Of a stretch of DNA of 32,000 bases, positions 1-5,155 are shown piece after piece. This DNA is from Planctomycetales bacterium. GTDB lineage: Bacteria; 4484-113; JAFGCY01. The stretch covers positions 3,330,001 to 3,362,000 of the forward strand of contig CP060262.1 in the NCBI GenBank assembly GCA_022646745.1, read 5' to 3'. A model generated the notes under the pieces. It was not told the origin of the DNA. It ran no database searches and worked only from the letters and a program-made list of their open reading frames with translations. Position 1 is the stretch's first letter, and every line of letters begins with the position of its first letter. The translations under genes and the position numbers were made by a program.

Positions 1-140
1 CGGGTTATCGTAATGGCTTACCCCTTCCTACCGGAATAAGGGTCGTAAGAAGGGGCATTTACACGTTCGTCGGAAGGGGTAGACGACCTCTTTCCAGAGG
101 ACTGAGCAGACTCAAAGTAGGTTCGAAGGTCAGCCAGGAG

Positions 141-231
141 GGGCTGCCAACCGGAACTTTCACCGCGCTCCGCGAGGAGCGCGTAAGGCAGAATCCAATC
201 CCAGAGCGCATTTCGGGAATTAACTCGCAGG
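141..231. repeat. IR-L: inverted 91-bp copy of the recombinase 3' end plus the 3'-terminal 9 nt of tRNA-Glu
   Basis: The reverse complement of 141-231 equals 2551-2641 at 90 of 91 positions; the only mismatch is 219 versus 2563. I first noticed it as the shared peptide RNALWDWILPYALLAERGESSGWQP in ORFs 18..470(-) and 1142..2644(+), then checked it base by base. Confidence 0.92.
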
Positions 232-237
232 GTTGGG

Positions 238-266
238 TTGTGCCTTCCTACAGTCAGGCAGATAAT
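238..266 (+). promoter_or_regulatory. Candidate sigma-70-type promoter of the MBL-recombinase operon, just inside IR-L
   Basis: -35-like TTGTGC (238-243), 17-nt spacer, -10-like GATAAT (261-266), 9 nt before ATG 276. This competes with an AGGGG Shine-Dalgarno reading at 269-273; both cannot be functional for the same transcript. Confidence 0.3.
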
Positions 267-275
267 GTAGGGGTT

Positions 276-1145
276 ATGGACATTCGAATCTTTGACGTTG
301 AACACGGCGATTGCATCTTGATTCTGAGTTCCAAGAATGAGGCCGTACTTGTAGATTGTGGTTGGAACCACACAACCGGCTGGAGAGTGTCCGATGGGTT
401 GGCAAAGCAAGGCTTTGGTAGTCGCCGGAAGCTCCATCATGTAATCATCACTCATCCAGACCAGGATCATGTTGCCGACCTACCAAACGTGCTTGAGACA
501 CTCAAGCCAATTCATGTCTGGCAACATCCTCAGTTGTATCTCAAGAACATCGCAGACTTAAAGGCCACGCTCAGTCTGGCGCAGAGTGCCTACCTTGCCA
601 GCCGGAAGTCTACTACGGAGCTTCAACCACTTGAGGCATCCAGACAGTTTCGGACAATGGAACTACACCAGTTCTACCTGCCGGTCGGCTCGGTGCGGGA
701 CGTTAACGACCTGTCGCTGGTAACGTTCCTCAAGGAAGATGGATTCACCGTCTGCCTGCCTGGTGACCTGAATGCTCGTGGCTGGCGTCTGCACTTGCAG
801 AACAAGGCGTTCCAGTACTGGCTTCGAGAGACAAACCTGTTCATTGCCTCACATCATGGCCGGATGTCCGGCTATCTCGACAAGGTGTTTGAATACCTCT
901 CTCCCAAACTGATTGCCATTTCCGACAAAGAGCAGACCAAAGGCAGGACAGTCACTCAGCGCGCGCCATACACTGACCATACCAGAGGCGTGAAAATGAA
1001 GGATGGCAGCTTCCGGCGCGTCCTGACAACCCGTGGCGATGGCAGAATCAGAATTGTCGTCAAAGATGGAAAGTGGGAAGTGGAAACCTCTCGCTCTCAA
1101 ACCAGTTATTCAAAACCATATTCCAACTCTAAGGAAAAACCATGA
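276..1145 (+). CDS. Stand-alone MBL-fold metallo-hydrolase, ComEC/Rec2-type beta-lactamase domain
   Basis: Starts MDIRIFDVEHGDCILI, has the metal motif ITHPDQDH, and a late IASHHG motif followed by P.LIAIS. All are typical of the ComEC C-terminal MBL domain. The stop overlaps the recombinase ATG (ATGA at 1142-1145). The ORF track start of 240 is a GTG; ATG 276 is preferred. Confidence 0.8.
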   Translation: MDIRIFDVEHGDCILILSSKNEAVLVDCGWNHTTGWRVSDGLAKQGFGSRRKLHHVIITHPDQDHVADLPNVLETLKPIHVWQHPQLYLKNIADLKATLSLAQSAYLASRKSTTELQPLEASRQFRTMELHQFYLPVGSVRDVNDLSLVTFLKEDGFTVCLPGDLNARGWRLHLQNKAFQYWLRETNLFIASHHGRMSGYLDKVFEYLSPKLIAISDKEQTKGRTVTQRAPYTDHTRGVKMKDGSFRRVLTTRGDGRIRIVVKDGKWEVETSRSQTSYSKPYSNSKEKP

Positions 1146-2644
1146 GCACTCCATCAGAGAACAAATTGAGATATCTGGCCTACTTCCGCAAATCCACCGA
1201 AAGTGATGAACGGCAGGTTCAGAGCATCCCTGACCAGAAGGATTGGGCTAACAAGGTTACTAACGAGCATCGGCTTACCATCATCAAGAGTAGGGAAGAA
1301 AGCAAGAGCGCTAAGAAGCCCGGCAGAAGTCAGTTCAATCTCCTGATTAAGGACATAGATGATGGCAAAGGCAACGCCGTTGTCGCATACGATGCTTCTA
1401 GACTGGCCAGAAACGCTCTTGATGGAGCCCGTATCATCGACTTGATGGACTCAGGAAAGCTTCAAGCAATCGTTACTGCTACGAACACGTTTCGCAATAA
1501 CAGCTCTGATAAGTTCATGCTGTCCTTCTTCTTTGCACAGAGCAAGCACTACGTTGACAACCTCAGCGAAGTGACATTGCGTGGAATGCGCAGCAAGGCA
1601 AAGAAGGGAGTATTCCCCGGTAGAGCCAAGTTTGGATATCTCAATCACCCTCGTACAAAGGAAATCGTCCCTGATCCAGAAGTATTCCCATACATCAAGG
1701 AACTGTATGAGATCTATGCCACCGGCTACTACGGCTTGCGGGAGATGTCAGAAGTTTCTTATGACATGGGACTCCGCAACTTCTCAGGTGGCATGTTGTC
1801 AAAGTCCCAGATAATGCGAATCCTGTCCGATCCCTTCTACTACGGAGCCTTCCGCTGGGCAGACGAAGACTATGAAGGCGTCCACGAGCCAGCCGTCTCC
1901 CATGAGCTGTGGGAGGCTGTTGAACGTGTCAGAAGCCACAGAGGACATTCAATCTCCAAGTGGCGCAAGCAGTATCCGTTCCTGGGTATGTTCCGCTGTG
2001 AGGAATGTGGAGCTTCCATCACTGCCGAGAAGCACACCAAGAAGTATAAGAACGGCTCCAGCCAGACCTGGCATTACTACCGCTGTACCAAGAAGAGCGG
2101 TACGCTCAAATGCCGTCAGCCCTTCACTAGGGAAGAAGTCCTCAACCAGTCCATTGCTGACCGCCTTCAAAAGATCAGTCTTCGTGAAGACTGCGCGGAA
2201 GCCATGCTGGAGCAGATTGACCGCTGGCAAGCGGAAGAAGGATCACGCGAAAGCGTGCAGATTGTGGAGTTGGAATTTGAAATTGAAAAGATCGAAGCGA
2301 AGCTTCGCAGGCTCACTGACTTGCACATAGATGGGGAGTTGGACATGTCCGACTACAAGAAGCGCAAGAGTGAGCTTATTAAGCAAAAGATCGCGTCGCA
2401 GACGCGCTTGAAGTTGGTTTCGCGAGAGGGGGTACGGGTATGGCTCGAACCCCTGCGAGAGTTAATAAACGCAGTCAGGGAGCGGAATCTCCCGACTGCG
2501 GGAAGTGATCTGCTTGAACTTCGCAACTTTGTTGCGAAGGTTGGCTCGAACCTGCGAGTTAAATCCCGAAATGCGCTCTGGGATTGGATTCTGCCTTACG
2601 CGCTCCTCGCGGAGCGCGGTGAAAGTTCCGGTTGGCAGCCCTAA
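1142..2644 (+). CDS. Large serine recombinase (resolvase/invertase catalytic domain + recombinase domain + zinc ribbon + coiled coil)
   Basis: N-terminal YFRKSTESDERQ places the catalytic Ser in the usual position. DASRLARN is present, as is a Cys-rich zinc ribbon (CEECG...YYRCTKK...KC) and a coiled-coil-like region (EIEKIEAKLRRLTDL). Length is 500 aa. The last 27 codons lie in IR-R and the stop TAA (2642-2644) lies inside the tRNA gene. Confidence 0.9.
   Translation: MSTPSENKLRYLAYFRKSTESDERQVQSIPDQKDWANKVTNEHRLTIIKSREESKSAKKPGRSQFNLLIKDIDDGKGNAVVAYDASRLARNALDGARIIDLMDSGKLQAIVTATNTFRNNSSDKFMLSFFFAQSKHYVDNLSEVTLRGMRSKAKKGVFPGRAKFGYLNHPRTKEIVPDPEVFPYIKELYEIYATGYYGLREMSEVSYDMGLRNFSGGMLSKSQIMRILSDPFYYGAFRWADEDYEGVHEPAVSHELWEAVERVRSHRGHSISKWRKQYPFLGMFRCEECGASITAEKHTKKYKNGSSQTWHYYRCTKKSGTLKCRQPFTREEVLNQSIADRLQKISLREDCAEAMLEQIDRWQAEEGSRESVQIVELEFEIEKIEAKLRRLTDLHIDGELDMSDYKKRKSELIKQKIASQTRLKLVSREGVRVWLEPLRELINAVRERNLPTAGSDLLELRNFVAKVGSNLRVKSRNALWDWILPYALLAERGESSGWQP
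2551..2641. repeat. IR-R: 91-bp partner of IR-L, covering the recombinase C-terminal codons and tRNA-Glu positions 68-76
   Basis: See IR-L. The outer edge of identity is exactly at 2641/2642. Beyond it, taacggg does not match ctcctgg, the reverse complement of the IR-L flank. Confidence 0.92.
2599..2618. repeat. Perfect 8-4-8 dyad CGCGCTCC-TCGC-GGAGCGCG inside IR-R, with an identical copy at 164-183 in IR-L
   Basis: Read directly from the sequence. The arms are perfectly complementary and the 4-nt centre is asymmetric. Confidence 0.85.
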
Positions 2645-2708
2645 CGGGACTCGAACCCGTGTTTCCGCCTTGAGAGGGCGGCGTCCTAGGCCACTAGACG
2701 ATAGGGCC
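2633..2708 (-). tRNA. tRNA-Glu, anticodon CTC, with encoded CCA
   Basis: The manual cloverleaf is GGCCCTA TC GTCT-AGTGGCCT-AGGAC G CCGCC CTCTCAA GGCGG AAAC ACGGG TTCGAGT CCCGT TAGGGCT G CCA. The D arm and 4-nt variable loop resemble bacterial tRNA-Glu. Pair 1-72 is a G-U wobble. Confidence 0.88.
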
Positions 2709-4159: not shown

Positions 4160-4974
4160 ACCGTGAAGCCGCACTGAGCAGCCAGGCAAGCATCCTGCTG
4201 GCAATGGCCCGCGTGGGCTTTGCCAGCTACATCGCATACCCGGCGGGCATCTTCATGGTGTTCCTCTCCTACCCGATCATCATCATGATGTACCGCTATG
4301 TGATGCAAGCGCTGTATGCCAACGCGGAGAAACTTGCCGGCTACGACCTGCAGGCGATGCTGACCTACGTCACCGTGAGCTGGCTGCTCAACACCTTCTA
4401 TATGACACCTACCGGGCGTACGCTCGGTGCCCGCGTGCGCGACGGACAGGTGGCAATGGACCTGATCAAGCCCGTCAACCTGATGATGATCTACTTTGGC
4501 CAGAGCCTCGGCCGCACGGCCTTCCGCGCCGTGTTCGCCACCCTGCCGCTGCTGTTCGTCTTCCTGTTCATCACGCGCATCAACGCCCCGGCTGATGGCT
4601 ACCTGCCGATGCTGATCCCCGCAGTGATCCTTGGCTACCTGCTGAACTTCACGATGGACTACATCATCGGCCTGATTGCCTTCTACATCGGCTTCAACAT
4701 GGGCATCCGCTGGGCGATCCGCATGATCATGGGTATCGCGGGCGGGATGGTGATCCCGTTGGCATACTTCCCTGACACGATCAGAAAGTTCTTCGAGCTG
4801 TTCCCGACGCAGTACATGTTCTACCAGCCGATGCAGATCTACCTCGGACGGGTGTCACAGCATGATGCCTGGATCATCGTGCTCAACAGCCTGCTGTGGG
4901 TGCTGTTCCTGGTGCTGTTCTCACAGGTCATGCAATGGGGCGGCCAAAAGCGCCTGAGCGTGAGTGGTGGCTAA
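4156..4974 (+). CDS. ABC-2-type transporter permease (uncharacterised DUF990-like family), about six transmembrane segments
   Basis: Hydrophobic 272-aa protein with a DLIKPVNLM-type motif recalled from this permease family. ATGA overlap with the glyA stop. No ATPase or second permease gene is nearby. Confidence 0.5.
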
Positions 4975-4987
4975 GGCTGTTGCTCGT

Positions 4988-4993
4988 TATAAT
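4988..4993 (+). promoter_or_regulatory. -10 box TATAAT 6 nt upstream of ATG 5000 (leaderless-type promoter for the HicB-like gene)
   Basis: TATAAT-caggat-ATG read directly. No usable Shine-Dalgarno spacing is present. Confidence 0.4.
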
Positions 4994-4999
4994 CAGGAT

Positions 5000-5155
5000 A
5001 TGAAAATCCCTGTAATCCTGAGGAACGGTGAATCCGGATGGATCGTGGCTTCAGCACCAACACTGCCAGGTTGCCATAGTCAGGGCAAGACCCGCGAGGA
5101 AGCGCTCGCCAATATCAAGGAAGCGATTGAGTTTTTTTTTGAGGATGAAGTATAG
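5000..5155 (+). CDS. HicB-like antitoxin family protein (UPF0150), 51 aa
   Basis: MKIPVILRNGESGWIVASAPTLPGCHSQGKTREEALANIKEAIEFF matches the short HicB/UPF0150 pattern (..PGC.tqG.T.EEAl.n.kEAi). No HicA-like partner is present on either side. Confidence 0.7.
   Translation: MKIPVILRNGESGWIVASAPTLPGCHSQGKTREEALANIKEAIEFFFEDEV

Follow-up and report, generated by a model that had tools for sequence, protein, structure and literature searches.

Why should a large serine recombinase gene sit between two long inverted copies of its own 3′ end? The question is raised by the left edge of a stretch of 32,000 nt from a Planctomycetales bacterium (assembly GCA_022646745.1, contig CP060262.1, positions 3,330,001–3,362,000; the whole stretch is called here the window), where a gene for a hydrolase of the metallo-β-lactamase (MBL) fold and a gene for a large serine recombinase (LSR) are enclosed by the two arms of an inverted repeat, IR-L and IR-R, the latter reaching into a tRNA-Glu gene. 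The explanation that we propose, and to which we give about even chances, is a dual-arm integrase cassette that switches orientation at the edge of a tRNA-inserted element. It draws on homologous cassettes in which, judging by the assembled sequences, the partner of either end is found to be the flank or foreign DNA. Related loci and proteins are cited below by our L and P handles, and feature coordinates are collected in Table 1.

A repeat search of the window confirmed the near-perfect 91-bp inverted repeat claimed in an earlier note made from the sequence alone: the arms, at 141–231 and 2551–2641, are each of 91 nt and complementary at 90 of 91 positions, with a sole mismatch of 219 against 2563, and match one another by blastn with an E-value of about 3e-42. 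A chance origin is excluded, because the best of the other inverted pairs in the first 4 kb span just 21 nt at no more than 81% identity. As that note had also stated, the arms hold only two genes, which are coupled, and the segment is lower in G+C, with 51.8% at 141–2641 vs 60.4% at 2709–32000; the window right of the cassette is core chromosome, with the genes glyA, sepF, ftsZ, ftsA and murC and that for RNase J. The note had listed a fold-back or chimeric assembly artefact among its alternatives, a possibility that we regard as extremely improbable: although the window begins 140 nt left of IR-L (leaving the element backbone of this copy outside it), several contigs of relatives end there as well and in one relative (L098) a repeat of 91 nt coincides exactly with the start of a contig, the repeat is internal to long contigs that stem from several assemblers and samples (L088, L090, L114 and L194), the arm copies differ by single bases, and independent proteins derived from NCBI and SRA data (P0126, P0127, P0185 and P0193) read across IR-L. 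The long-contig repeats and these proteins rule the artefact out.

The right arm is the simpler one to account for. As described in the earlier note, IR-R lies within the 3′ end of the recombinase gene plus 9 nt of tRNA-Glu; it covers the final 30 codons, the last three of which (W-Q-P) overlap the tRNA 3′ end, GGGCTGCCA. The codon TGG of Trp498 (2633–2635) is the antisense of the tRNA CCA, and this residue is invariant across 23 close homologues, whose tails diverge beyond it (e.g., RESNPR, PDSNWR) as antisense translations of tRNA T-arms. In related loci the LSR gene likewise enters an opposite-strand tRNA or tmRNA gene at its 3′ end, with targets that include the tRNAs for Glu, Gly, Pro, Gln, Ala, Phe, Val, Leu, Arg and His, as well as tmRNA, and the target is left intact in the window and at 30 or more of these loci. 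Additionally, an LSR that is 97% identical in amino acids occurs at a different tRNA-Glu(CUC) in a host of lower G+C (L004/L092), and the likeness between that element and the window ends exactly at 2641, the outer boundary of IR-R. Because LSR genes run into tRNA and tmRNA ends, and because identity with the copy from the other host stops at 2641, IR-R reads as the P arm that the element contributes to attR, contained within the integrase gene; the junction is crossed by this gene in antisense direction, and its last codons are therefore the tRNA 3′ end. The junction of the LSR gene with the tRNA and the glyA side was reproduced in three independent ENA metagenome contigs at 99.4–99.9% identity. 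Junction comparisons place the crossover in the last 6 nt of the tRNA; as a putative serine integrase, the window recombinase would carry out attP × attB integration with a 2-bp crossover. Save for the enzyme class and the gene overlap, the right arm is ordinary for an integrative element, so that the oddity that the earlier note saw in such a repeat for an LSR disappears for IR-R, simply the P arm of attR, and stays with IR-L, the second copy.

Two observations extend the range of junction partners. The contig L003 (1711–1757), from a sister sample, departs from the window from position 2750 onwards, at a distance of about 40 nt on the upstream side of the tRNA-Glu gene, and therefore the other neighbour of this gene differs between strains or loci. 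Likewise, P0024 and P0029, from different clades, have an identical 33-aa tail (WLTTQDEFRTWLKSADPYELSMIADAMDALQSV) that is neither of the tRNA type nor of the flank type, so that a third junction partner exists, shared by the two.

At the left arm, the outermost 6–10 nt of IR-L copy the 3′ end of each element's own target tRNA, and the sequence outside IR-L aligns among elements of unrelated hosts. This flank contains a T-loop look-alike, GGTTCG(G/A)AG, that starts 27 nt before the CCA in all nine elements compared (9/9; in the window, the CCA at 147–149), whereas the T-loop of the tRNA or tmRNA on the opposite side starts 22 nt before it, as does GGTTCGA (2657–2651) in tRNA-Glu. In the LI serine integrase, the outer motif of the attB half-site is shifted 5 bp inward with respect to attP (PMC3783163); the 27- vs 22-nt spacing appears to match this shift of the zinc-ribbon motif, and by analogy the T-loop-like motif would be the one bound by the zinc ribbon. 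Because the distance of the motif from the CCA exceeds that in the tRNA by 5 bp, the left site, S1 (about 111–175), reads as a complete attP-type site with the order P′-core-P, and the right site, S2, reads as attR-type, P-core-B′. The MBL-recombinase cassette would then be bounded by two inverted sites, one of the attP type and the other of the attR type. In relatives, S1 is found within the divergent intergenic region that separates a TraD-like gene from the MBL-LSR operon.

Left of this flank, the relatives carry genes for a TrwB/TraD-like coupling protein, a DUF2958 protein and a Replic_Relax protein (TrwB_AAD_bind/TraG-D_C and Replic_Relax genes in L088 and L090), and at 37 loci a TraD-like gene accompanies an LSR of this family. 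Their cargo is of the defence type, including a Bub-like ubiquitin system, GNAT, Gabija-like and restriction-modification genes, and in L007 the G+C content of the left region is 58.5% vs 42.9% on the host side. The relatives thus appear to continue leftward as a mobilizable element of at least 10 kb, whose far (attL) end was not reached within 9–10 kb in L088, L090 and L194, and positions 1–2708 of the window read as the tRNA-proximal integration module of such an element in its integrated form. In these respects the cassette may work like a tRNA-targeting integrative mobilizable element (IME).

The idea of the earlier note that the repeat bounds a self-contained unit had to be given up, since the left 140 nt are conserved and complete an attP-type site, and backbone genes follow. 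With it goes one of the alternatives in that note, a 2.5-kb autonomous element with 91-bp terminal inverted repeats whose circle would carry a perfectly palindromic attP, which we consider improbable. The exact end of identity with the other-host copy at the outer boundary of IR-R would be in agreement with it, as would the unrelated, host-like DNA that adjoins the outer end of the left arm (IR-L′) in L087, and the many assemblies with cassette-only contigs of 2.3–2.7 kb; however, such short contigs are expected from any inverted repeat in short-read assembly graphs, the sequence outside the repeat is conserved in unrelated hosts with the motif at a fixed spacing of 27 nt, and the flank leads into TraD-like, relaxase-like and cargo genes with a G+C foreign to the host. 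A mini-element bounded by its repeats was rejected on the grounds of the conserved left flank and the backbone genes beyond it, and a transposon or insertion sequence with terminal inverted repeats was rejected as well: the DNA outside on the left is conserved element sequence, not host.

The inverted copy of the recombinase 3′ end upstream of the MBL partner, which the earlier note had proposed to look for in homologues, recurs in diverged relatives. An MBL gene, an LSR gene and a near-perfect inverted repeat of 76–100 nt occur together in at least ten of them, four inside contigs of 82–218 kb; their LSRs are 47–63% identical and come from metagenome-assembled genomes (MAGs) of Patescibacteria, Planctomycetota and other lineages. 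Identity between the left and right arms is 97.5–100% within an element vs a median of 76% between elements, and the two substitutions that distinguish L011 from L012, one of them synonymous, are mirrored in both copies of the arm. Because of this high within-element identity and of the mirrored changes, the arms can be said to evolve in concert, held identical by continuing exchange. Inverted duplications of this size can arise spontaneously, and this is what speaks for a functionless duplication of the gene 3′ end that arose by a recombination or replication error and has yet to decay, an explanation that we judge very improbable: the architecture is kept across LSRs as divergent as these, the copies co-vary and the partner motif holds a fixed spacing from the copy, and the divergence of the loci excludes recent transfers of a single element. 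In the broader LSR family (33–40% identity, no MBL gene), inverted copies of the P arm were not found above shuffled controls. As a possible exception, L098 (35% LSR identity, no MBL gene) contains a 91-nt inverted copy of the recombinase 3′ end, with 100% identity (1–91/1590–1680); this repeat, upstream of the gene and at the exact contig start, could be an artefact.

Evidence that the cassette is found in more than one arrangement comes from the junctions. A minus-strand reading through IR-L would add 40 residues (LLADLRTYFES...) to the recombinase, in keeping with the suggestion of the earlier note that a flip would alter its C-terminus, and the predicted product exists in a sister metagenome: P0123, of 540 aa, is identical to the window LSR over residues 1–500 and then has the predicted 40-residue tail. 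Its contig, L087, derives from a sister sample of the contigs bearing the tRNA-joined form; positions 4509–4739 are the reverse complement of window 231–1 at 230 of 231 positions, with the lone difference being the IR-R allele at position 219, and the contig extends 67 nt past window position 1. Flank-type tails (LRT[YH]F...) also end P0007, P0015, P0025 and P0038, and LSR genes of both the flank type and the tRNA type occur within each of four clades. A query with the C-terminal peptide for more flank-joined recombinases retrieved only a 97-aa fragment (P0214) and no further recombinase. In L086, P′, the flank and the same G/C-rich stem-loop come after the LSR gene, and after them a TraD-like gene that is oriented alike, an arrangement of cassette and TraD gene that is the mirror image of that in L007, L010 and L114. 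The opposite end of the cassette also varies: an S1-type site is read through in P0127, a protein from a Planctomycetales MAG for which P0193 gives support, whereas L087 has the same IR-L′ but unrelated DNA outward of the CCA block. The breakpoint lies exactly at the CCA block, and the MBL-proximal site is active as well. Finally, L085 has flank-type arms at both sides, with mismatches confined to the arm hairpin, and molecules with two complete inverted attP-type sites therefore probably exist.

These arrangements suggest that the cassette may change orientation relative to the element backbone, for which two routes can be envisaged. The first would be an in-situ inversion between the 91-bp arms; the second, a free element with two inverted attP sites that integrates through either of them. 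Both would spare the tRNA and both sites, and with both the recombinase would alternate between two forms, of 500 aa when joined to the tRNA and of 540 aa when joined to the flank; the candidate catalysts are the recombinase, to which the MBL nuclease may lend help, and homologous recombination by the host. A single model could unite the two routes: in the free element, the cassette would be enclosed by two inverted attP sites, and integration through the LSR-proximal attP would convert it to attR and shrink the repeat to the common P arm, as is found in the window. With repeats of such length, flipping would be an expected event, whether through homologous recombination of the host or through proteins of the element, and repeated exchange would fit the concerted evolution of the arms.

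The self-inverting module proposed in the earlier note is thus upheld in part: in its geometry, with arms that permit inversion with the tRNA kept intact, in the conservation of the repeat and in the existence of a flank-joined LSR. Several results weigh against an orientation switch at this locus. A reciprocal junction of a real tRNA with the repeat and the MBL gene was not found in any contig, and the left half of L087 is only about 82% identical left of window position ~850 vs 100% to the right; as its left half is a different cassette variant, L087 is not the window locus flipped, and may be a scaffold of chimeric origin or come from a further copy of the element. Flank-joined genes could derive from free or excised forms, and L085 is not explicable as a simple mixture of two flip states, because such a mixture would create branches that a unitig could not pass on both sides. 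An MBL gene is present in L014 and L015, where IR-L was not found within 119 nt, and scans for sigma-70 promoters in the flanks of the window, L007, L010 and L114 gave none that would make orientation regulatory. Lastly, canonical rules for serine integrases do not allow recombination of attP with attR (PMC3783163), and for this reason a self-catalysed inversion would be new; self-catalysed switching at the window locus may take place, and in-situ inversion is plausible, if unproven.

Some of the same observations would suit an alternative that we hold possible although unlikely, in which nothing inverts: S1 would serve statically as a second attP, or else as an operator for autoregulation to which the recombinase binds upstream of its own operon, as Tn3 resolvase does at res; the P arm would merely be common to S1 and attR, occasional gene conversion would keep the copies alike, and the flank-joined contigs would be excised circles or other copies. 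The position of S1 in the divergent TraD-like/MBL-LSR intergenic region would agree with this, as would the flank-joined contigs, all of them short (1.5–4.8 kb), the forms with two attP-type sites suggested by L085, and the canonical exclusion of attP × attR (PMC3783163). Nevertheless, about 50 bp would be enough for an operator or attP, against 76–100 nt of perfect identity here, and the repeat reaches 60 nt past a normal half-site. Likewise, the opposite orientation of flank and TraD gene in L086 would need duplicated backbones if there were no inversion, and a second copy of the P′-flank was not present within 9 kb leftward in L088 and L090.

The ~82% and 100% portions of L087 correspond to two cassette variants, which are identical from window position ~850 through the recombinase and about 82% identical in the 5′ half of the MBL gene and IR-L. 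Contigs L001–L003 start at window positions 958, 844 and 1040, respectively, with the break near the identity switch of L087, and an NCBI Planctomycetales MAG has a third combination, with an MBL protein 89% identical and an identical LSR. This pattern indicates a mosaic exchange among cassettes.

As the earlier note had stated, the recombinase belongs to the large serine recombinases, an assignment that follows from both its domain matches and the predicted geometry of its att sites. It contains the Resolvase (PF00239, E = 3.6e-20), Recombinase (PF07508, 2e-10) and Zn_ribbon_recom (PF13408, 5.5e-10) domains; R16, S18 and further residues of the catalytic region are invariant in 23 homologues, as are the zinc-ribbon cysteines C286, C289, C315 and C324. 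Structure matches are to the SPbeta and A118 integrases, with the C-terminal region matching the C-terminal domain of the latter, and the top named families were CcrB, CcrA and XisF, all under their cut-offs. The MBL protein matches Pfam Lactamase_B (5.6e-9) as well as NCBIfam and PDB entries, and its closest named relatives are the MBL domains of ComEC. The family consensus (MDIRIFDVEHGD) places its start at ATG 276; the longest open reading frame would begin at GTG 240. The ATGA overlap that couples it translationally to the recombinase gene is at 1142–1145. In relatives the MBL gene is 69–81% identical, and it is restricted to the close LSR subfamily (LSR identity of at least 43%), which is home to every MBL-linked inverted repeat. 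No close relative of either protein was found in plasmid and viral collections, and exact look-ups gave no record of the MBL protein of the window or of P0127.

The 3′ end of the recombinase gene appears to be constrained as DNA. Identity of synonymous codons among homologues rises from ~0.40 to 0.65–0.75 in codons 361–390 and 421–498, and a conserved GC-rich hairpin lies within the P arm 14–34 nt past the CCA; its three stem variants (GCGCTCC/GGAGCGC, GCGCCGC/GCGGCGC and TCCTCGC/GCGAGGA) are all fully complementary and impose different residues on the protein (LLAER, PLARR and ILASR). Together, hairpin covariation and raised synonymous-codon identity would reflect a constraint at the DNA level. 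Furthermore, there are six terminator-like sites antisense to the recombinase, vs 2.6 ± 2.2 expected, which coincide with the raised synonymous-site conservation in codons 361–420. They may end read-through from the tRNA-Glu gene, and may replace the terminators of this gene, its own downstream region being displaced. No promoter was detected inside or beside the window cassette; the suggestion of a cassette promoter redirected by the flip thus found no support in these scans of cassette and flank. A scan of the whole window with Rfam gave tRNA-Glu as its sole match.

Comparison with known systems sets the cassette apart from each of them in some respect. The recombinase shares the order resolvase-recombinase-zinc ribbon with the integrases of phiC31, Bxb1, A118/LI and SPbeta (SprA) and with the SCCmec Ccr proteins, and its arms show the 5-bp motif shift between attP and attB of the LI integrase. 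Unlike those, the target here is a tRNA or tmRNA 3′ end with the gene spanning the junction, the integrated element retains an intact site of the attP type to which a second, inverted P arm contributes, and the partner is an MBL-fold protein rather than a known directionality factor. As with Hin, Gin, Cin and Pin, a segment between inverted sites goes together with a serine recombinase, and a flip would alter C-termini or orientation; those enzymes, however, are of ~190 aa with a C-terminal HTH and use equivalent 26-bp sites with a Fis-dependent enhancer, whereas here there are 500 aa, repeats of 76–100 nt and sites that are attP-like vs attR-like. A Hin/Gin-type invertase was rejected for the 500-aa recombinase/zinc-ribbon protein, the 91-nt arms and their unequal outer halves (P′-flank vs tRNA). 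Genomic islands at tRNA genes, integrative conjugative elements and IMEs with tyrosine integrases also insert at a restored tRNA 3′ end with the integrase gene proximal to the tRNA, and the coupling protein, relaxase-like gene and defence cargo of such elements are seen in the backbones of the relatives; unlike them, the recombinase here is a serine enzyme and the copy of the tRNA end on the integrase side is inverted, not direct.

Other parallels are more partial. In the yeast 2-micron plasmid, with its FLP/FRT system, the recombinase gene also lies between long inverted repeats with its own sites and two isomers are expected, a layout that L085, with its 172-nt repeats, resembles; the likeness is one of analogy, FLP being a tyrosine enzyme whose sites are identical, and a role in copy number is not evident here. 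The site in a divergent control region recalls Tn3/gamma-delta resolvase at res, and by analogy autoregulation may be possible, but here the repeat reaches far past an operator. In intragenic invertons (PMC10028968), one arm is likewise inside a coding sequence and inversion recodes a C-terminus; unlike in them, the gene that would be recoded is the one for the recombinase, whose own attachment sites make up the arms. In the full-text literature, we found no description of a junction-spanning serine integrase with an inverted second P arm and an MBL partner.

We therefore entertain, as a tentative and rather doubtful generalization, that the cassette represents an undescribed and widespread class of modules in uncultivated bacteria, with a crossover at the universal CCA of tRNAs, a doubled inverted arm, an integrase that toggles its own gene between a tRNA-joined and an attP-joined state or else integrates either way, and an MBL protein as a possible accessory or directionality factor. 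Serine integrases are valued as genome-engineering tools for their simple, directional site logic. A natural family that targets many tRNA 3′ ends, with one arm embedded in coding sequence and a second, inverted attP, would offer broader site logic and new parts; it would also give a handle on the movement of mobile defence islands in Patescibacteria, Planctomycetota and other uncultivated lineages, and assign a testable role to the conserved MBL nuclease partner. If true, a self-toggling integrase would break the attP × attB-only rule, whereas a repeat that is the passive by-product of gene conversion would still leave a well-defined new family of integrases and att sites, of an ordinary kind.

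Table 1. Features of the integration module in the window and inverted repeats of its relatives
Feature	Position or repeat length	Strand	Remarks
Left flank, element sequence	1–140	+	aligns with flanks of 10 relatives from unrelated hosts
Small palindrome	about 17–62		within left flank
P′-type half-site	about 111–146	+	T-loop look-alike GGTTCGAAG at 120–128
IR-L	141–231	+	copy of tRNA 3′ end GGGCTGCCA (141–149), then putative P arm
IR-L GC hairpin	stem 164–171, loop 172–175, stem 176–183
MBL-fold (ComEC-like) hydrolase gene	276–1145	+	289 aa from ATG 276
Large serine recombinase gene	1142–2644	+	500 aa
Terminator-like hairpins	2176–2406	-	antisense to recombinase gene
IR-R	2551–2641	+	putative P arm of attR-type junction S2, inside recombinase 3′ end
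IR-R hairpin	2599–2618
tRNA-Glu(CUC), intact	2633–2708	-	ARAGORN, Rfam; putative host half (B′) of junction
L007	82 nt		inside 218-kb Patescibacteria contig
L008	82 nt
L010	76 nt		inside 185-kb Planctomycetia contig
L011, L012	96 nt		100% identity
L093	76 nt
L114	77 nt		inside 158-kb contig, at tmRNA
L085	172 nt		includes flank (P arm about 79 nt)
L194	100 nt		inside 82-kb contig

The small palindrome in the left flank marks a point at which independent short-read contigs (L008, L011, L012, L089, L091 and L085) stop, 93–140 nt left of IR-L, and which the assemblies of L088, L090, L114 and L194 pass through. These stops were inconsistent with the k-mer size of the assembler across assemblies, and a second sequence context was not derivable from them; they suggest a repeat or population heterogeneity at the palindrome, for which the candidates are an oriT, a junction with cargo, or the flank present a second time, inverted, at the far attL. 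Variation further inside the element is illustrated by L194 and a 269-kb JGI contig, which have an identical MBL protein and share the host locus (tRNA-Ala, carA) and differ in their interiors, one with Gabija-like, methyltransferase/restriction and DUF2779 genes and the other with a TraD-like gene adjoining the cassette. Within the core chromosome of the window, the translation of a small open reading frame at 4964–5155, just downstream of the ABC-2 membrane gene, resembles by eye a HicB-type antitoxin. A single genome may also harbour several cassettes: MAG SJ870 (JADZFO01) has at least five (L005, L011, L012, L014 and L015), all at contig ends and located at tRNA-Glu, tmRNA, tRNA-Ala, tRNA-Phe and tRNA-Val.

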